Below are positions 1,411 through 26,291 of a stretch of 35,120 nucleotides of DNA, piece after piece. The notes beneath the pieces are model-generated. The model did no database searches. It worked only from the letters and a program-made list of their open reading frames with translations, and was not told the origin of the DNA. The DNA is from a virus (taxonomy: Duplodnaviria; Heunggongvirae; Uroviricota; Caudoviricetes). A program made the translations under genes and the position numbers. The stretch lies in the IMG/VR virus record IMGVR_UViG_2778261168_000003; one strand, given 5' to 3'. Within the stretch, counting starts at the first letter, position 1; every line of letters begins with the position of its first letter.

Positions 1411-1986
1411 TTACCTAACGTACTTAATTGTTAAACTTATAATTTTCCCAATTATTTCAACATCTTCTATCTTGCACTCGAAGGCTCTGTTTCCACCCTC
1501 GACGAAGATTCTTCCACCGGGTAAACGAGTAATGTCACGGATCGTTATTTCGCCATCAATACTTATTACCCATTTACCATCACGTATATCATCAAATTCC
1601 TTATCACAAATAAATTCAGAATTATTATCTGTGATTACAAAAAGATTCTTGAATGCCGACGGTAGAAATTCTCTATCGAAAATATAAAAACCGTCTTCAC
1701 ACAAGGCCCCATCAGATAATACATATTTAGCAACTTCCATAGTATTTGTATTACCTGAAGTTTGCTTTGAACCATGCCCGGTTGTGAGCCAATTAAGCGA
1801 GGTGCCTGTTTCAAGGGCGCACTGGATTACCCATTCTGCTGGGAATGAGTCACGCATGTAGCGTGTGGCGAGTGTACTTTTAGAGATTCCTAAATGATCG
1901 CACAACGCCTGTCGAGTCTTGAATCCATAAGCTTCTACCATGCGCTCTATAGCGCCTCGTCCGCCTTTCTCCAAATTCATGGTCAC
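1411..1986 (-). CDS. cI: Immunity repressor, 186 CI-like
   Basis: 191-aa minus-strand ORF upstream of and co-oriented with int; N-terminal HTH-like segment (LCDHLGISKSTLATRY); divergent from the apl/cII early operon as in phage 186. Confidence 0.75.
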   Translation of the reverse strand: MTMNLEKGGRGAIERMVEAYGFKTRQALCDHLGISKSTLATRYMRDSFPAEWVIQCALETGTSLNWLTTGHGSKQTSGNTNTMEVAKYVLSDGALCEDGFYIFDREFLPSAFKNLFVITDNNSEFICDKEFDDIRDGKWVISIDGEITIRDITRLPGGRIFVEGGNRAFECKIEDVEIIGKIISLTIKYVR

Positions 1987-2004
1987 TCCAAGTGAACTTT
2001 TATC

Positions 2005-2033
2005 TTGACGATTTCACTGTGCGATCGTATGTT
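2005..2033 (+). promoter_or_regulatory. Candidate sigma70 early lytic promoter (pR-like) in the cI/apl switch region
   Basis: TTGACG (2005-2010), 17-nt spacer, TATGTT (2028-2033), upstream of apl; near-direct repeats CGATCGTAT / CGATCCGTAT nearby could be operator half-sites. Confidence 0.35.
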
Positions 2034-2105
2034 TATGGTGTTCACAAAATACAAACGATCCGTATTCGTCCTGATTAATCATCATTAAACGAGGAATGTT
2101 GCATC

Positions 2106-2327
2106 ATGAGACCTAACATTTCAATCACTCTTACCACGCCTCATGTGACTATTGAACGCTATAGCGAGCTGACAGGGCTATCCATCGATACCATCAATGA
2201 CATGTTGGCTGATGGACGCCTTATCCGTCACCGTCTGCGCAAAGATAAAAAACGCGAAAAAGTGATGATCAACATAGCAGCAATGACCGTTGATGCGCTT
2301 TCAGAATGCAATCTAAACCTTAATTAG
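2106..2327 (+). CDS. apl: Apl/Cox-like excisionase and early transcriptional regulator
   Basis: 73-aa basic ORF, first gene of the rightward early operon directly opposite cI; position matches 186 apl / P2 cox. Confidence 0.55.
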
Positions 2328-2353
2328 TTCGATTCTGAAATACATCAGAGGCA

Positions 2354-2869
2354 TTGACCATGTTTGATTACCAAGTTTCCAAACATCCACATTTTGATGA
2401 AGCCTGTCGTGCATTCGCATTGCGCCACAACCTGGTGCAACTGGCAGAACGTGCTGGCATGAATGTGCAGATTCTGCGGAACAAGTTGAACCCAGCTCAA
2501 CCTCATTTATTAACCGCACCAGAAATCTGGCTGCTTACCGATCTGACTGAAGATTCAACGCTGGTAGATGGTTTTCTGGCTCAGATTCACTGCCTGCCAT
2601 GCGTACCGATTAATGAGGTGGCAAAAGAGAAACTGCCACATTACGTCATGAGTGCAACCGCAGAGATCGGGCGTGTTGCTGCAGGTGCGGTATCTGGCGA
2701 TGTAAAAACCAGTGCAGGTCGTCGTGATGCTATCAGCAGCATTAACTCTGTAACACGACTGATGGCGTTGGCTGCTGTTTCATTGCAGGCCCGTTTACAG
2801 GCTAACCCTGCGATGGCGAGTGCAGTTGATACCGTGACTGGCCTCGGTGCTTCATTCGGTTTGCTGTGA
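2354..2869 (+). CDS. cII: CII-like lysogeny establishment activator
   Basis: 171-aa ORF after apl; N-terminal sequence ([24 protein letters not shown]...[17 protein letters not shown]) resembles 186 CII as I recall it. Confidence 0.7.
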
Positions 2870-2876
2870 GGTGCTT

Positions 2877-3077
2877 ATGCTGACGAAAGAACCATCATTT
2901 GCATCGCTGCTGGTAAAGCAAAGCCCGGCAATGCACTACGGTCACGGCTGGATCATGGGTGAGGATGGAAAACGCTGGCATCCGTGCCGTTCACAAGATG
3001 AATTGCTGGCAGAACTATCTACGAAAAAACGGGGGAACAAATGGCTATTGAAGGCGCTGCGGCGACTGTTCCATTAA
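2877..3077 (+). CDS. Small early protein (at the position of 186 fil), hypothetical
   Basis: 66-aa ORF starting at ATG 2877 with upstream GAGGTG; placed by synteny only. Confidence 0.4.
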   Translation: MLTKEPSFASLLVKQSPAMHYGHGWIMGEDGKRWHPCRSQDELLAELSTKKRGNKWLLKALRRLFH

Positions 3078-3382
3078 GACCCGGTGAACGCCTGAATGGA
3101 CTTAATCATATTGCGGAGTTAAGGGCGAAAGTTTTTGGTTTGAATATTGAGTCAGAGCTTGAGCGGTTTATTAAAGATATGCGTGATCCACGGGATCTCA
3201 ATAATGAACAAAATAAACGGGCACTGGCTGCCATATTCTTTATGGCAAAAATTCCAGCTGAACGTCATAGCATCAGCATTAATGAGCTGACCACTGACGA
3301 AAAGCGGGAGTTGATTAAAGCAATGAATCATTTTCGTGCAGTGGTGAGCTTATTTCCCAGACGGCTAACCATGCCGAATTAA
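3041..3382 (+). CDS. Early-region hypothetical protein
   Basis: 113-aa ORF in the early operon; no recognisable motif. Confidence 0.45.
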   Translation: MAIEGAAATVPLRPGERLNGLNHIAELRAKVFGLNIESELERFIKDMRDPRDLNNEQNKRALAAIFFMAKIPAERHSISINELTTDEKRELIKAMNHFRAVVSLFPRRLTMPN

Positions 3383-4764: not shown

Positions 4765-7175
4765 GCCATGCTGATATGAACAACTGCAGCGGCTTTAACG
4801 AGGCCGCCGCAGCATTCTCATGGAACAGCCCGAAAAAGGCTATTAACCCTTATCTGGACCCGGCGGAAGTTGCGCCGGTTTATGCGCTTTCAAACCTGAT
4901 CACTCTGTACGCTGCCGATAACGAGCAGGAACAACTGCGCCGCGAGGCACTGAGTGATCAGGTCTGGGAGCGTTATTTCTTTAATGAATCCCGTGATCCT
5001 GTCCAGCGCGAAATGGAGCAGGATAAGCTCATTAGCCGGGCAAAGCTGGCGCATGAGCAGCAGCGTTTTAATCCAGACATGGTCATTCTGGCGGACGTCA
5101 ACGCTCAGCCTTCCCATATCAGCAAGCCGCTGATGCAACGTATTGAATACTTCAGCAGCCTGGGCAGGCCAAAGGCTTATTCCCGCTATTTGCGTGAGAC
5201 GATTAAGCCATGTCTGGAACGACTGGAGCATGTACGCGAGAGTCAGCTATCCACTTCTTTTCGCTTTATGGCAAGCCATGAAGGGCTGGACGGCCTGCTG
5301 ATCCTGCCTGAAATGAGTCAGGCTCAGGTGAAACGCCTGTCCACCCTTGTTGCTGCGCATATGAGCATGTGTCTTGATGCAGCTTGTGGCGATTTGTATG
5401 CCACCGATGACGTTAAGCCAGAAGAAATCCGCAAAACATGGGAAAAGGTGGCAGCGGAAACCCTGCGTCTGGATGTTATTCCGCCTGCGTTTGAGCAACT
5501 CCGTCGGAAAAGAAACCGCCGTAAACCCGTGCCCTATGAACTCATTCCGGGTTCGCTGGCGCGTATGTTGTGTGCCGACTGGTGGTATCGGAAATTATGG
5601 AAGATGCGTTGCGAATGGCGGGAAGAGCAGTTGCGTGCTGTCTGCCTGGTCAGCAAAAAAGCATCCCCCTATGTCAGCTATGAAGCCGTGATGCATAAAC
5701 GTGAGCAGCGCCGTAAGTCGCTGGAGTTTTTTCGTTCTCATGAACTGGTGAACGAAGACGGCGACACGCTGGATATGGAAGATGTGGTAAACGCCAGCAG
5801 CAGCAACCCTGCGCATCGCCGCAATGAGATGATGGCCTGTGTTAAAGGTCTGGAGCTTATCGCGGAAATGCGCGGTGACTGCGCCGTTTTCTACACCATC
5901 ACCTGTCCGTCACGTTTCCATTCCACGCTAAATAACGGCAGGCCCAACCCAACCTGGACAAATGCGACGGTAAGACAAAGCAGTGATTATCTGGTCGGCA
6001 TGTTTGCTGCATTTCGTAAGGCGATGCACAAAGCCGGATTGCGGTGGTATGGCGTGCGGGTGGCTGAGCCGCATCATGACGGTACAGTTCACTGGCACCT
6101 GTTGTGTTTTATGCGCAAAAAAGACCGCCGCGCCATCACTGCATTACTGCGTAAGTTTGCCATCCGTGAAGACCGCGAGGAGTTGGGCAATAACACAGGG
6201 CCGCGCTTTAAGTCTGAGTTGATTAACCCGCGCAAAGGAACGCCGACAAGCTACATCGCGAAATACATTAGTAAGAACATTGACGGGCGTGGTCTGGCTG
6301 GCGAGATCAGCAAGGAAACGGGTAAATCCCTGCGTGATAACGCTGAATACGTTAATGCCTGGGCGTCTCTGCATCGTGTTCAGCAATTCCGCTTCTTTGG
6401 CATTCCGGGGCGTCAGGCTTACCGTGAACTGCGATTACTGGCTGGTCAGGCGGCAAGGCAACAGGGGGACAAAAAAGCAGGTGCGCCGGTACTGGATAAC
6501 CCGCGCCTTGATGCAATCCTGGCTGCTGCTGATGCTGGTTGTTTTGCCACCTACATCATGAAGCAGGGCGGCGTACTGGTTCCCCGCAAATATCACCTGA
6601 TCAGAACCGCTTATGAAATCAACGAAGAGCCGACCGCCTATGGCGATCACGGCATTCGTATTTATGGCATCTGGTCACCCATTGCAGAGGGCAAGATCTG
6701 CACTCATGCAGTGAAGTGGAAAATAGTTCGTAAGGCCGTTGACGTTCAGGAGGCGGCAGCCGACCAGGGCGCTTGCGCCCCTTGGACTCGTGGCAATAAC
6801 TGTCCCCTTGCTGAAAATTTGAACCAACAAGGGAAAGACAAATCAGCTGATGGGGATACCAGAACGGACATTACCCACATGGATGACAAGGAGTTGCACG
6901 ATTACCTACACAGTATGAACAAAAAAGAGCGCCGGGAACTGGCTGCAAGGTTACGCTTGGGGAAACCGAAACGGCGTAGAGACTACAAACAGCGAATTAC
7001 AGACCATCAACGACAGCAGCTCGTCTATGAACTGAAGTCCAGAGGATTTGATGGCAGCGAGAAAGAGGTCGATTTACTCCTTCGCGGCGGCAGTATTCCG
7101 TCAGGAGCAGGCCTGCGTGTCTTCTATCGGAACCAGCGTTTGCAGGAAGATGATAAGTGGCGGAACCTGTATTAA
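4761..7175 (+). CDS. A: Rolling-circle replication initiator gpA (P2 A-like)
   Basis: 804-aa ORF; HxH-type motif ([10 protein letters not shown]) and tyrosine motif (YIAKYISK) as in P2 gpA; ATGA overlap with dam. Confidence 0.9.
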
Positions 7176-18521: not shown

Positions 18522-18966
18522 ACTGCAGAAGGTGGACGACTGGCTGAGTGTCTTGCTGACGAATCTGGAGCCAGCCGCAAGAAGCCGCATGATGCGTCAG
18601 CTGGCGCAGGAACTGCGCCGGACACAGCAGCAGAATATCAGGATGCAGCACAACCCTGACGGTAGCAGCTATGAACCGAGACGGGTAACAGCACGCAGCA
18701 AAAAGGGTCGCATCAAACGTCAGATGTTTACAAAGCTGCGCACCACCAAATACCTGAAAACTGCCGCCAGCGCCGATTCTGCCAGCGTGCAGTTTGAAGG
18801 TAAGGTGCAGCGCATTGCCCGCGTTCACCATTACGGCCTGCGTGATCGTGTAAGCCGTAATGGTCCGGAAGTGCGGTATGCAGAGCGGCGATTATTAGGT
18901 TTCAATAACGATATAATGTTGAAGTTAATTGATCTGTTAACTCGGCATTTAATTAATCCAAACTAA
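18514..18966 (+). CDS. S: Tail completion protein S-like
   Basis: 150 aa; synteny with P2 S; the last ~20 codons are AT-rich and overlap the convergent cargo gene. Confidence 0.7.
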   Translation: MAELQKVDDWLSVLLTNLEPAARSRMMRQLAQELRRTQQQNIRMQHNPDGSSYEPRRVTARSKKGRIKRQMFTKLRTTKYLKTAASADSASVQFEGKVQRIARVHHYGLRDRVSRNGPEVRYAERRLLGFNNDIMLKLIDLLTRHLINPN

Positions 18967-20158
18967 GTTTATATTTCTCAATGTGATTATTGATGTGATT
19001 AAAGAACATTCTTGGATTCCAACCTTTTGTGAGTTCAGAAATTAAATACTCATCAACCATGTCGAGTGCATAGTCTAAGGTCGGCTGTAAAAGTAGCCCC
19101 CCAATTGATCCAACTACTGGAGCTAAAGGAGATGTAATATTCGATGCCGCTAAGGCTCCAGTTAACATCATGGCAATGCTCTTAGTCGAACGGCCTAAAA
19201 AGGAATCAAAAAATCCTTTTGAGTTTGATATGCTATCAATGTAATATTTTGAGATGTCACTCGCTGAACTGCTTTGTTCTGCTTCTTTTAACCATTTTCT
19301 GAATTTTTTAGCATGACGATCATTTCTGAGCCTCATGATGTCATTCATTGGTAATCCCATTTCAATAAATGATTTACGTAAGTCAGGGAAGTTTTCAATG
19401 AGTGAAATTTGTTTGAATATCTCATTCTTATCAATTGTAATTAATGCTTGGCTGATAATTGCACTCACATTGTCTGTTATGTGGGGGCGAGCTTTTTTAT
19501 TAACGAGATATTTAAAGTTGAACAGTTCTTCTGCAACTTTTCCTAACTTTTTTTTATCGGTAAGACTCAAATCTGTTAATTTCTCTTTAGTTAAATCGAT
19601 TCCCAACTGGTTAAGTTTACCACTATTCAAAGCTGATATTGTCATGTCAACACAGTCTTTTTCTAAACCTTTGGGAATGTCTAAGTAGTTATCTCTCAGT
19701 TTTTTAATAAGATTTCTTTTTTCACCAGGTTTAAGACCTTTTCTTAATACGCTGAGCCCAGTTGAGATCGACTCCTCAGGGTCCGTATGTACGGTACTAT
19801 TAAATCTCATGCTAACTAATGGAAGAGTTCCAGGTATCGGAGATGAAATGTATCCAACATTGGCAGTCCATAATGAAAAACTAAGAGCCTCTTGGTCAAT
19901 TAATCTCTCAACATCATATAGGCCTATCTCATTAACCAGAAAAGCAAGTGGAACGTTTTCTCCATATACTTTGAAGTTTAATTTTTCATTTAAAATAAAA
20001 CCCTCAAATAGCTTTGATCTAATATTTTGAAGTTTTTTAGGTTGATCTATTATGTCTTGCTTCGTGAGCTGTGTTTCGCCAATCATAATATATTTTCGGC
20101 AGTAATCGTTTAGTTCTGTATCAAATAAAGCATTCGATATATCTATTTTTTTTGACAT
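18953..20158 (-). CDS. Cargo protein of unknown function at the S/V (P2 orf30-type) locus
   Basis: 401-aa ORF antisense to the late operon in a strongly AT-rich insert; hydrophobic stretch near the C-terminus (IAMMLTGALAASNITSPLAPVVGSIGGLLL); no recognisable catalytic motif. Confidence 0.6.
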   Translation of the reverse strand: MSKKIDISNALFDTELNDYCRKYIMIGETQLTKQDIIDQPKKLQNIRSKLFEGFILNEKLNFKVYGENVPLAFLVNEIGLYDVERLIDQEALSFSLWTANVGYISSPIPGTLPLVSMRFNSTVHTDPEESISTGLSVLRKGLKPGEKRNLIKKLRDNYLDIPKGLEKDCVDMTISALNSGKLNQLGIDLTKEKLTDLSLTDKKKLGKVAEELFNFKYLVNKKARPHITDNVSAIISQALITIDKNEIFKQISLIENFPDLRKSFIEMGLPMNDIMRLRNDRHAKKFRKWLKEAEQSSSASDISKYYIDSISNSKGFFDSFLGRSTKSIAMMLTGALAASNITSPLAPVVGSIGGLLLQPTLDYALDMVDEYLISELTKGWNPRMFFNHINNHIEKYKLSLD

Positions 20159-22227: not shown

Positions 22228-22825
22228 TCTGCTGCCATCGGGGTCAACTTCACTGGAGCGCCGACTGGCGCAGACCTGTAGCGGGATTTCTGATCTGCAG
22301 GTGCCGCTGCGTGACTTGTGGAATCCGGCTACCTGCCCGGTCAGCTTCCTGCCTTATCTCGCCTGGGCGTTCTCTGTGGATCGCTGGGACGAAGGCTGGA
22401 CAGAAAGCGTCAAGCGCCAGGTGGTGAAGGATGCTTTTTATATTCATCAGCATAAAGGGACCACCAGTGCCGTGCGGCGGGTGGTGGAGCCGTTCGGCTT
22501 TCTGATCCGCATTATTGAGTGGTGGCAGACCGGAGAGGCACCGGGCACGTTTCGTCTGGATATCGGCGTGCAGGACCAGGGCATCACTGAAGATACCTAT
22601 CTGGAACTTGAGCGGCTGATAAGCGATGCCAAACCATGTAGCCGTCACATGATCGGCATGTCCATCAATCTGCAGACCAGCGGTCCGCATTGGGTGGGGG
22701 CCGCCAGCTATCTTGGCGAAGAAATCACGATCTATCCGTATATCAACGAAACAATTATTTCCGGCGGCACCGCGCATGAAGGTGGGGCGGTCCATGTTAT
22801 TGACACAATGAGAGTGAATCCATGA
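22220..22825 (+). CDS. I: Baseplate protein I
   Basis: 201 aa; overlaps J stop and H start; synteny. Confidence 0.75.
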   Translation: MNSLLPSGSTSLERRLAQTCSGISDLQVPLRDLWNPATCPVSFLPYLAWAFSVDRWDEGWTESVKRQVVKDAFYIHQHKGTTSAVRRVVEPFGFLIRIIEWWQTGEAPGTFRLDIGVQDQGITEDTYLELERLISDAKPCSRHMIGMSINLQTSGPHWVGAASYLGEEITIYPYINETIISGGTAHEGGAVHVIDTMRVNP

Positions 22826-24552
22826 GCACAAAATTTTATACCCTGCTGACGGATATTGGCGCGGCGAAACTTGCCAGCGCCGCCGCGCTCGGTGTGCCTT
22901 TAAAAATTACCCATATGGCGGTCGGCGATGGCGGCGGAACATTGCCAACGCCGGACGCAAAGCAGACAGCATTGGTAAATGAGAAACGCCGGGCTGCGCT
23001 GAATATGCTCTATATCGACCCGCAGAACAGCAGCCAGATTATTGCCGAACAGGTGATCCCAGAAAACGAGGGCGGTTGGTGGATACGTGAAGTGGGCCTG
23101 TTTGATGAGTCCGGGGCATTGATTGCCGTGGGCAACTGCCCGGAAAGCTATAAGCCACAACTGGCTGAAGGCAGCGGGCGCACCCAGACCGTGCGCATGG
23201 TGCTGATTACCAGCAGTACGGACAATATCACCCTGAAAATCGACCCTGCTGTCGTGCTGGCAACCCGTCATTATGTAGATCAACAAATAGAAATTCATGA
23301 GCAATCGCGCCGCCATCCTTCTGCGTCTTTGACAGAAAAGGGATTTGTACGTCTGTATAGCGGTGTGGAAAGCAATGATGAAACAGTCGCTGCAACGCCA
23401 AAAGCAGTGAAAATAGCGATGGATAATGCCAGCGCCAGACTGGCAAAAGACCGCAATGGTTCTGATATTCCCAATCCGGCACTGTTTGTTCAGAATCTGG
23501 GATTGAAAACGACTGTTGATAAAGCTGCATCAGCGATTCAGCCAGGAGATTATGGAATTGGCCTGGCTTATCTGAAAACCATGGGAACCAAATCGCAATT
23601 TTTTGCTTATGGTACAGCTGTCGGCTATCCAGAAGTGCCAACACATGGTGCTGGTTTCCAGGCCTGTTACAACGACAATCGACGTGCACAGATTTATGTC
23701 GCTAATGATGGCAAGATGTACTGTCGATTCAGCATGTTATCGAAAATTGCCGATGATGAAACACCGTGGAATCAGGTGTTCACCAGTGCACATTATCCAG
23801 AAGCATCAGTGAGTGTTAAAGGAATGGTGCAATTGGGGAACGATGTAAACAGCGTGTCAGAAAATGTTGCGGCGACATTGAAAGCGGTAAAAATTGCGAT
23901 GGACAACGCCAGCGCGAGACTGGCAAAGGACCGCAATGGTGCTGATATTCCTGACCCGACTTTGTTTATTCAGAATCTGGGACTTAAACCGACGGTTGAT
24001 AAGGCTGAAAGTGCTCTGCAACAGGGAGCATACGGAATCGGTAGCAATAATAACTACGAAATGGGTGAGGTTTCACAGTTTCTTGCATATTCAGGTAATG
24101 CAGATGAAGTGCCATCGAATGGTGCAGGTTTTCAGGCTGTGTATAACAAGAACAGACGCGCGCAGATTTTCATCACCGGAGCAGGGGAAATGTATCACCG
24201 TTTCAGCGGCTCTGATACGGTTAAAGACAATACAACACTATGGCGTCGGGGTGTTTGTGAAGATGAATTTTCATTTGGCAGCAATTATCACCGAATAACT
24301 GGCGGTGTGCTGAAGCAGTTTTTTAACAGTTATTTTTCCGGGGCAACTGGTGTGGTGAATAAAGAGTATCAGGTGAATTTTCCGACACCATTTGCCCGTC
24401 AGTGCTGGTACGTGATCCCCGTTTTCCGTTCGTCACACGGTGGGAGTGTTGAGGGTGTCGCCATTACAGCTATTACTGCAACTGGCTTTACTCTGAGCAT
24501 CACCGGAGATAACGGTGGATGGAATATTGGGTTTATTGCGGAGGGGGTCTGA
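22822..24552 (+). CDS. H: Tail fibre protein H
   Basis: 576 aa; N-terminal MSTKFYTLLTDIGAAKLA... tail-fibre N-domain; variable C-terminal part contains a 160-aa tandem duplication. Confidence 0.85.
   Translation: MSTKFYTLLTDIGAAKLASAAALGVPLKITHMAVGDGGGTLPTPDAKQTALVNEKRRAALNMLYIDPQNSSQIIAEQVIPENEGGWWIREVGLFDESGALIAVGNCPESYKPQLAEGSGRTQTVRMVLITSSTDNITLKIDPAVVLATRHYVDQQIEIHEQSRRHPSASLTEKGFVRLYSGVESNDETVAATPKAVKIAMDNASARLAKDRNGSDIPNPALFVQNLGLKTTVDKAASAIQPGDYGIGLAYLKTMGTKSQFFAYGTAVGYPEVPTHGAGFQACYNDNRRAQIYVANDGKMYCRFSMLSKIADDETPWNQVFTSAHYPEASVSVKGMVQLGNDVNSVSENVAATLKAVKIAMDNASARLAKDRNGADIPDPTLFIQNLGLKPTVDKAESALQQGAYGIGSNNNYEMGEVSQFLAYSGNADEVPSNGAGFQAVYNKNRRAQIFITGAGEMYHRFSGSDTVKDNTTLWRRGVCEDEFSFGSNYHRITGGVLKQFFNSYFSGATGVVNKEYQVNFPTPFARQCWYVIPVFRSSHGGSVEGVAITAITATGFTLSITGDNGGWNIGFIAEGV
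23350..24230 (+). repeat. Tandem duplication of about 480 bp (160 aa) inside tail fibre gene H
   Basis: Near-identical nucleotide runs start at 23386 and 23866 (GCGATGGA.AA.GCCAGCGC.AGACTGGCAAA.GACCGCAATGGT); protein units AAT.KAVKIAMDNASARLAKDRNG.DIP.P.LF.QNLGLK.TVDKA...GAGFQA.YN.NRRAQI. Confidence 0.8.
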
Positions 24553-24986
24553 TGAGTTATTTTTACAGTCCATCAAGAAATGCATTTTATAACAGTGAAC
24601 TGAAATCTGATTATTACGATGCTCTCGATGCGTGGCCGGATGACTGTATTGAGGTAAGTGATGCAGTCTATCAGGAGTTTTATCTTGGTTATCGGGAAGG
24701 GTACAAAATGGTTGCAGGCACTGATAACCAGCCATCATGGGAAGAACGTCCACCATTGACCCATGAGGAACAGGTGGAACAGGCAGAAATGATGAAACAG
24801 ATGCGCATTAATGAGGCTAACAACCTGATTAATGAAAAACAATGGCCATCAAAATTACAGCTTGGCAGGCTGAACGAAATGGAGACAACCAGATTTAATG
24901 CGATGCTGGATTATCTTGAGTTACTTGAAAATATTAATGTAAGTGATGCCCCGGATATAGTCTGGCCTTTATCACCAGAAGTCTGA
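24552..24986 (+). CDS. G: Tail fibre assembly chaperone G
   Basis: 144 aa starting at ATG 24552 (TGATG overlap with H stop); synteny. Confidence 0.7.
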   Translation: MSYFYSPSRNAFYNSELKSDYYDALDAWPDDCIEVSDAVYQEFYLGYREGYKMVAGTDNQPSWEERPPLTHEEQVEQAEMMKQMRINEANNLINEKQWPSKLQLGRLNEMETTRFNAMLDYLELLENINVSDAPDIVWPLSPEV

Positions 24987-25024
24987 ATACATCCCCGCGT
25001 CTTCGGGGATTCCTGTATCCGCCG

Positions 25025-25042
25025 TTGTGCCATTTTTCATAC
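25025..25042. promoter_or_regulatory. Late-activator (Ogr) dyad TGT-N12-ACA upstream of FI
   Basis: TGTGCCATTTTTCATACA, centre about 85 nt upstream of the FI start. Confidence 0.45.
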
Positions 25043-25118
25043 AAACCACATAACGTGCATCCTGCTCGTATCAACCAGAACATAGGCAGACCCCCTCTAC
25101 TACCGGAGAGACTGCCTT

Positions 25119-26291
25119 ATGGCTCAGGATTACCACCACGGGGTGCGCGTTGTTGAAGTCAACGAAGGCACCCGATCCATTACCACGGTGAGCACCGCCA
25201 TCGTGGGTATGGTCTGCACGGGCGATGATGCCGATGCAAAAATGTTTCCTCTTAATAAACCCGTGCTGATCACTGATGTGCTGACTGCCAGCGGTAAAGC
25301 GGGTGAGTCCGGCACGCTGGCCCGTTCGCTGGATGCCATCGCTGACCAGGCAAAACCCGTGACCGTTGTTGTGCGTGTGCCGCAGGGGGAAACGGAAGAA
25401 GAAACCACGACCAATATCATCGGCGCAGTGACTGCTGAAGGTAAAAAAACTGGCATGAAAGCCCTGTTATCTGCCCAGTCACAGCTCGGGGTTAAACCGC
25501 GCATTCTCGGCGTGCCAGGTCATGATAACAAAGCCGTTGCTACTGAGTTGCTGAGCGTGGCGCAAAGCCTGCGTGGGTTTGCTTACCTGTCAGCGTATGG
25601 CTGCAAGACGGTGCAGGAGGCGCTCACTTACCGTGAAAACTTCAGCCAGCGCGAAGGAATGCTGATCTGGCCTGACTTTACTGGCTGGGACACGGTGCTG
25701 AATGCCGAAGCAACGGCATATGCCACCGCTCGTGCGCTTGGTCTGCGCGCCAAAATTGACGAGCAGACCGGATGGCACAAAAGCCTGTCCAACGTGGGCG
25801 TGAACGGTGTCACCGGAATTTCTGCTGATGTGTTCTGGGATCTGCAGGACCCGGCAACAGATGCAGGTCTGCTTAACCAGAACGACGTCACCACGCTTAT
25901 CCGCAAAGACGGTTTCCGCTTCTGGGGTTCCCGCTGTCTGAGCGATGATCCGCTCTTTGCCTTCGAAAACTACACCCGCACGGCGCAGGTGCTGACGGAC
26001 ACAATGGCAGAAGCGCATATGTGGGCGGTGGACAAACCGCTGAACCCGTCGCTGGCCCGCGACATTATCGAAGGTATCCGCGCCAAAATGCGCAGCCTGG
26101 TCAGTCAGGGCTATCTCATTGGTGGTGATTGCTGGCTGGACGAGTCGGTGAATGACAAAGACACACTGAAAGCCGGAAAACTCACCATCGATTACGACTA
26201 CACGCCAGTACCGCCACTTGAAAACCTGATGCTGCGTCAGCGCATCACCGATCAGTACCTGGTGAATTTCTCCAGCCAGGTAAGCGCGTAA
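25119..26291 (+). CDS. FI: Tail sheath protein FI
   Basis: 390 aa; size and position match P2 FI. Confidence 0.85.

Follow-up and report, generated by a model that had tools for sequence, protein, structure and literature searches.

Gene H, the tail fiber gene of a P2-like prophage of Escherichia coli, contains two consecutive units of about 160 amino acids (aa) in its distal half, and the question that this locus raises is whether these units are the copies of a recent 480-bp tandem duplication, as an original prediction made from the sequence proposed, or modules with a longer history. The prophage is contained in the IMG/VR virus record IMGVR_UViG_2778261168_000003, and we refer to the whole stretch of DNA that was analyzed, 35,120 nucleotides (nt) in length, as the window. 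We find that module swapping at this locus is recent and that duplication is not. The two units are very probably old paralogous shaft modules of P2/Mu-type fibers, which either form a pair that is itself old or, more likely, had already diverged when they were joined at the segment formed by a PF03406 repeat and the connector that follows it.

An internal repeat in the distal half of gene H

The gene and its two repeat units occupy the following positions.
22822–24552, plus strand: tail fiber gene H (576 aa), identified from its open reading frame (ORF), from Pfam matches (PF12571, PF03406 twice and a weak PF21882) and from the RefSeq annotation of a 99.8% identical copy.
23305–23784, plus strand: repeat unit 1 (aa 162–321), comprising PF03406 head, connector and knob 1, delimited by self-alignment.
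23785–24261, plus strand: repeat unit 2 (aa 322–480), comprising PF03406 head, connector and knob 2; the aligned repeat stops at aa 476 (nt 24249).

Comparison of H with itself, which had been set beforehand as the test of the prediction, revealed a significant internal repeat. The best diagonal of the protein lies at an offset of 160 aa (aa 162–263 against 322–423, score 311) and continues at an offset of 158 aa (aa 271–318 against 429–476, score 140), while all other diagonals score at most 35; a gapped local alignment of the units scores 436, against 30.8±5.5 (maximum 51) in 300 shuffles. In the DNA the first 102 codons keep an offset of exactly 480 nt, which becomes 474 nt after a 2-codon indel, and a repeat search recovered positions 23323–23561 against 23803–24041 at a spacing of 480 and 70% identity. 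It is thus supported that a P2-type fiber gene carries a tandem repeat within its distal half, the part that determines host range, and the repeat lies where it had been placed (23350–24230), although its true extent is slightly wider, from nt 23305 to 24249.

The similarity of the units is another matter. They had been described as highly similar in both protein and DNA, but over 154 aligned codons their identity amounts to 61.7% in protein and 62.6% in DNA, and the longest exact match between them is 14 nt. By the Nei-Gojobori method the proportion of synonymous differences (pS) is 0.68 (synonymous divergence, dS, about 1.8, saturated) and that of nonsynonymous differences (pN) is 0.28, with the same codon kept at 48 of the 95 residues that are identical between the units; Tandem Repeats Finder did not report the repeat in H, the copies being too diverged. 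Because synonymous sites are saturated, identity is 62% in protein and 63% in DNA, and no longer exact match is present, this is not a recent duplication. Divergence is also distributed differently than was first described: the early knob (codons 237–256), in the middle of the unit, is indeed diverged, but the first ~25 codons (40–47% aa identity) and the last ~30 codons are diverged as well. Identity between the units is about 70% across codons 257–290 and highest across codons 187–236, where it reaches 80–100% in protein and up to 91% in DNA.

Anatomy of the repeat unit

Each unit can be divided into a head, a connector and a knob, for which the relevant features are as follows.
23326–23448, plus strand: PF03406 "phage tail fibre repeat" of unit 1 (aa 169–209), the best of two Pfam stretches (E = 1.7e-29).
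23380–23529, plus strand: conserved connector of unit 1 (aa 187–236), AATPKAVKIAMDNASARLAKDRNGSDIPNPALFVQNLGLK..., which overlaps the 3' half of the PF03406 match (aa 169–209).
23530–23784, plus strand: knob 1 (aa 237–321), a beta-rich domain of ~85 aa with the motif G.YG.G...NGAGFQ..Y...RRAQ...RFS...W.
24010–24261, plus strand: knob 2 (aa 397–480).

The connector follows the pattern AAT.KAVKIAMDNA.ARLAKDRNG.DIP...LF.QN.GL, and its unit 1 copy is 80–91% identical in nucleotides to that of unit 2. It matches residues 111–190 of the phage Mu fiber protein S (PDB 5yvq/8ju3) with an E-value of about 1e-23. When a profile of both units was compared with 1.84 billion representative proteins, 1,236 matches were obtained; among the best 150 of these, nearly all were limited to profile positions 1–80, which correspond to the PF03406 repeat and connector. 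The knob matches no Pfam family, and a profile of seven knobs searched against all PDB sequences for a relation to known knob domains returned a best E-value of 1.4, to unrelated proteins. The PHROG 988 "tail protein" profile (574 positions) aligns to aa 1–529 of H (E = 1.6e-163), and knob 1 scanned alone matches positions 299–379 of this profile; PHROG 988, a family made by clustering, carries no description of function or structure, and the repeat is not defined by it.

Natural recombinants and their breakpoints

Relatives of H that share only part of the gene allowed recombination joints to be mapped at nucleotide resolution, at codons ~160, ~190, 214–217 and ~356, all of which lie at the start of the distal cassette or within the PF03406/connector segment. 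The first of these is seen in E. coli JNE120393 (L004), which belongs to another N-terminal lineage: its nucleotide identity to the window rises from about 0.6–0.8 to 1.0 at codon ~160, continues through the first ~300 nt of the tail fiber assembly gene tfa, and is then lost. A second fiber (L018, IMG/VR, 631 aa) is 92–100% identical in nucleotides per 12-codon segment (at least 97% in most) from codon ~160, across unit 1 and into the head of unit 2, to the sequence AATLKAVK at codon ~356, past which it has an unrelated distal part, a glycine-rich tip and a different Tfa; P0242 is of the same type. The L018 fiber gene lies at positions 1441–3351 of its locus, and its tip, which bears GGGGGGG... 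motifs, looks like the T-even gp38 adhesin type.

The third recombinant bears directly on the number of units. A 416-aa fiber with one unit, encoded inside a P2-like tail gene cluster (L002, Logan SRR14117170), has foreign sequence up to codon 190; its codons 191–214 match the unit 1 connector at 100% identity, and everything from codon 217 through the stop matches unit 2 at about 100%. The switch from unit 1 to unit 2 falls inside a 10-nt identity and is the sole crossover between the two units that was observed.
23462–23471, plus strand: 10-nt identity CTGATATTCC, unit 1 copy, the crossover point of the one-unit variant L002 in a three-way nucleotide comparison.
23942–23951, plus strand: 10-nt identity CTGATATTCC, unit 2 copy, the partner of the unit 1 copy in that crossover.
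As the one-unit allele is rare (the L002 type is present on 2 contigs, and in 0 of 5,426 complete E. coli genomes), the simplest view is that it derives from the two-unit allele by deletion or recombination. In temperate phages, exchange between short and imperfect homologies has reportedly been documented (PMC3945230).

The region had been predicted to be recombination-prone, and it does recombine, given that natural recombinants are 97–100% identical to the window in nucleotides beside their breakpoints; a proneness of the whole unit to recombine is, however, not supported, there being no exact match between the copies longer than 14 nt. We propose that the PF03406/connector segment would serve as a portable joint for recombination in modules built, in order, of PF03406 repeat, connector and Knob-like beta domain of ~85 aa. 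Recent exchange at or next to this joint has transferred the two-unit cassette in its entirety among P2-like lineages, has put another tip in place of all that lies distal to the second PF03406 repeat, and has probably given rise to the rare one-unit fiber.

Origin of the two modules

The domain order, age, spread and breakpoints of the modules are matters of direct observation. Knob 1 and knob 2 are 49% identical to each other, and 47–49% identical to the knobs of unrelated fibers (P0268, L023 and P0377). In a knob tree (82 alignment columns, 11 sequences), a clade uniting knob 1 with the knob 2 group was present in 2 of 200 bootstraps, and the knob 2 group itself (window, P0008 and L026) in 183 of 200. 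Since unrelated knobs are as near to knob 1 as knob 2 is, duplication as an event inside H is unlikely, contrary to what the repeat had first suggested; the joining of modules that had already diverged is favored, or else a duplication that predates the spread of the domain.

A very old duplication in an ancestral fiber gene, followed by divergence and later export of knobs to other fibers, would account for the three-part layout that both units share in register and for connectors that are 81% identical in nucleotides to each other against 68–72% to Mu, and the same history has been inferred for Knob1 and Knob2 of the pyocins (Buth et al., PMC6116203). It sits poorly with the near absence of a clade of knob 1 and knob 2 among the bootstraps, and with the occurrence of near-identical unit 1 or unit 2 without the other (L018 and L002), which indicates that modules are freely joined and separated. 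We consider this history unlikely, though not to be dismissed lightly.

Several points nevertheless weigh against the joining of modules that had already diverged. With a knob tree of so few columns and sequences, a very old in-gene duplication with export of knobs retains some probability, and the closer resemblance of unit heads and connectors to each other than to Mu would fit common descent or old gene conversion. As to the direction of the change in unit number, a one-unit ancestor that gained the tail of unit 1 and the head of unit 2 by insertion would also be compatible with these data. Lastly, the AlphaFold2 model of the 423-aa distal part had a predicted local distance difference test score (pLDDT) of 32 and was discarded as useless.

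The origin of the pair in old, diverged modules is also in keeping with how widely and uniformly the cassette is distributed. Its distal 1,272 nt occur at full length and at least 95% nucleotide identity in 48 of 5,426 complete E. coli genomes, in 30 of these 48 at 99% or more, and a junction-specific probe found both units in all 48 carrier genomes and the one-unit junction in none of the 5,426. The best 120 protein clusters listed are all 573–579 aa in length, the exact H protein is present on 265 contigs, and 17 of 21 IMG/VR loci carry the two-knob 576-aa gene (one of the 17 is cut by the contig end). Among the 118 distinct 576-aa variants there are two N-terminal lineages with only 66% identity in protein and about 60–70% in nucleotides, and yet their distal cassette is the same: from codon ~160 onward, identity is 98% or more in aa and about 99% in nucleotides. 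This marks the cassette as a stable block whose transfer between P2-like lineages was recent. Some E. coli chromosomes (RM10466, 00-3076 and KS-NP019) have 4–6 junction-probe matches, that is, two or three prophages with the two-unit cassette in each. Among 50,697 phage records, a megablast search with H matched only the N-terminal 459 nt, and a tblastn search with distal H matched only the PF03406/connector segment, such that the cassette is in no isolated phage in that collection.

Against this background, it is highly improbable that 480 bp were recently duplicated in tandem within H, which would have left an unstable gene liable to unequal crossing-over. Such an event would draw on the period of exactly 480 nt in the first 102 codons and on the existence of a one-unit relative (L002). 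The saturated pS, the 63% nucleotide identity and the longest exact match of 14 nt are nevertheless at odds with it, alignment error being ruled out by a codon-by-codon alignment; the two-unit form is invariant in the 48 carrier genomes and common to two diverged prophage lineages, in which a fixed cassette, with no less than 98% aa identity, stands beside N-terminal domains that are only 66% identical; and the knobs are not sister copies. The locus is instead an ordinary, already widespread fiber allele with an old two-module shaft of known kind, and the record is corrected accordingly, from a fresh, unstable duplication to a stable, old two-module shaft, with little import beyond tail fiber specialists.

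It is equally improbable that the repeated connector marks the sites of an invertase or shufflon, as in the G segment of Mu, by which the number of units would be switched by program. The appeal of this idea lies in the Mu G-segment boundary, which is in the homologous LFIQNLGL motif. Positions 22500–25300, however, contain no inverted repeat of at least 16 nt, the sheath gene directly follows tfa, with neither an invertase gene nor an alternative tip there, the position equivalent to gix in the window is without the AAACC..GGTTT dyad of Mu, and the L002 junction is about 30 nt upstream of that position. An invertase-type switch of the connector was rejected on these grounds. The Mu boundary, which is the Gin crossover site, is at position 779 of the Mu locus (L027) within the LFIQNLGL codons, and its equivalents in the window are 23480–23510 and 23960–23990.

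The least probable account, that an assembler wrongly expanded the repeat, drew no support from the analysis and can be set aside, as both units are present in the 48 complete E. coli genomes, some with two or three copies, as well as on the 17 IMG/VR contigs and hundreds of other contigs (the 100% identical protein on 265), and units at 63% nucleotide identity are too diverged for an assembler to confuse.

The knob domain and its predicted fold

The knob is found in fibers of several other architectures. It occurs singly in an Enterobacter prophage fiber of 608 aa (L005/L025), in two giant fibers (L023 and L024), and in P0268 and P0363; in P0377 it occurs twice in tandem with no PF03406 repeat between the copies, and in several of these fibers it lies mid-shaft, not at the tip. 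Species-representative genomes searched with four knobs gave a match in one only (Enterobacter).

An AlphaFold2 model of aa 230–330, a monomer built from 8 sequences, had a pLDDT of 74 (70–89 over residues 21–95) and five beta-strands, which agrees with an antiparallel beta-sheet of ~80–85 aa and five or six strands, the form expected of a Knob. Foldseek searches with this model returned R1 and R2 pyocin fibers as all of the top three PDB matches, at marginal scores (E-values of 0.035–0.45; template modeling (TM) scores of 0.45–0.51), and the named matches in BFVD were almost all tail fibers. The Mu fiber aside, the fold matches are proteins that Buth et al. 2018 (PMC6116203) list as bearing Knobs. 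The resemblance is weak but consistent, and the predicted 85-aa domain likely has the pyocin Knob fold; given that the structural scores are marginal, this assignment is likely but unproven.

R-type pyocin fibers have two tandem Knob domains of about 83 aa each that arose from an ancient duplication, and Knob2 has been suggested to influence the killing spectrum (Buth et al. 2018, PMC6116203). These fibers (PDB 6CL5 and 6CL6) resemble H in that two tandem domains of about 83–85 aa, of beta-sheet fold in the pyocins and predicted to be so in H, lie in the shaft of a P2-related contractile-tail fiber, and in that the knobs are old, diverged duplicates parted by a short linker motif. Phi11 gp45, phage K gp144 and T4 gp34 also bear knobs, and the predicted knob fold of H finds such proteins first. 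In contrast to these likenesses, there is no detectable sequence similarity between the pyocin fibers and H, and the structural scores are marginal; the pyocin linker is a single helix plus turn, whereas that of H is a full PF03406 repeat with a Mu-type connector (~75 aa); and the knobs of H (49% identical) are much less diverged than the pyocin copies (20% identical).

The closest fibers by gene organization are P2 gpH and Mu S, which like H have a PF12571 N-terminal domain, PF03406 repeats, the gene order I-H-tfa-sheath and a Tfa chaperone; residues 111–190 of Mu S share the connector sequence with H. P2 gpH and Mu S are, however, without the 85-aa knob (in the tblastn search of the 50,697 phage records, only the PF03406/connector parts matched), and H differs from them further in its tip, which is of the Gp53-like C-terminal type and not of the P2/Mu type, and in having no invertible segment. 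Mosaic distal fiber parts are reportedly exchanged among P2, Mu, P1 and lambda, as Haggard-Ljungquist et al. in 1992 and Sandmeier in 1994 are said to have described.

By analogy with the P2, Mu and pyocin fibers, H would be a homotrimer whose N-terminal domain docks on the baseplate. Between this domain and the tip, each of the two modules would most likely make up one bead, and the two beads in succession would extend the shaft; at the tip, the last ~96 aa, which Tfa would help to fold, would bind the receptor. The modules may contribute to reach or binding, and either knob may take part in binding, as has been proposed for pyocin Knob2.

We tentatively suggest, as a proposal that may well fail, that the 85-aa knob represents an uncatalogued family with the pyocin Knob fold and that the PF03406/connector segment is a portable joint for in-frame gain and loss of knob modules. 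If this is true, the near-isogenic pair of 576-aa and 416-aa fibers, with 100% DNA identity on both sides of the 10-nt junction, offers a ready-made test of the effect of module number on host range and adsorption. A natural pair with one and two units could also guide fiber engineering, for example in P2/P4-based delivery vehicles with swapped fibers (PMC9594776, PMC9942202). The analysis further flags a knob-type domain for which Pfam has no model.

Genomic setting of gene H

The remaining features of H and of the gene that follows it are listed below.
22822–23268, plus strand: N-terminal baseplate-attachment domain of H (aa 1–149), PF12571 (E = 6.9e-65; 218 bits against a cut-off of 23).
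24262–24549, plus strand: C-terminal tip domain of H (aa 481–576), the presumed receptor-binding end, from a weak PF21882 (Gp53-like_C) match and PHROG tail fiber C-termini.
24552–24986, plus strand: tail fiber assembly protein (gpG-like chaperone, Tfa), PF02413 (E = 6.5e-26) and RefSeq annotation.

Upstream of H are baseplate genes, homologs of V, W, J and I, and downstream is tfa followed by the sheath and tube genes. The copy in E. coli AR_452 (L001) is 99.8% identical, and its RefSeq annotation gives the P2 gene order I-H-tfa-sheath. H is thus placed among P2 gpH-type fibers by its PF12571 domain, by the PF03406 repeats that follow it, and by its location between gene I and tfa, with sheath and tube genes beyond. 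Only nt 1–459 of H are 96% identical in nucleotides to P2-like phages of Klebsiella and E. coli. GC content falls from 54% in the N-terminal part of H (22822–23304) to 46–47% in the distal cassette and 41% in tfa, a drop that would fit a horizontally exchanged cassette of different origin.

The PF21882 match of the tip, on aa 508–570, is sub-threshold at 23.2 bits (cut-off, 24.9); in the relatives P0008, L026 and L002 this tip invariably comes after knob 2. In L002 the tip of H is 100% identical to that of the window, but its tfa (5251–5682) is only about 65% identical in nucleotides, and so tip and chaperone are not strictly co-inherited. The tfa gene is also a mosaic in itself, in that the window (24552–24986) and L004 (3231–3668) are 100% identical over about 300 nt and diverged in the last ~40 codons.

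Two ORFs that overlap H (23228–23689, minus strand; 23894–24298, plus strand) were judged spurious. The plus-strand ORF is read only in a frameshifted variant of the two-unit fiber (P0241, 491 aa) in some E. coli, which is presumably a pseudogene.

Other genes of the window

Two adjacent genes on the plus strand between the replication genes and the portal gene, at 8897–9811 and 9808–10548, have strong matches to the PADLOC candidate defense system PDC-M03 (A, E = 2e-122; B, E = 3e-93). The B-like gene has a HIRAN domain and the A-like gene a weak HipA_C match. In the closely related prophage of E. coli AR_452 the same position holds other cargo, a TIGR02391/Hypoth_Ymh protein with PD-Lambda-3_B-like matches.

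A 401-aa ORF on the minus strand (18953–20158), flanked by the gpS-like virion morphogenesis gene and by baseplate gene V, has no Pfam or PADLOC match; the same gene is present in L001 with the annotation hypothetical, and it has the look of a moron.

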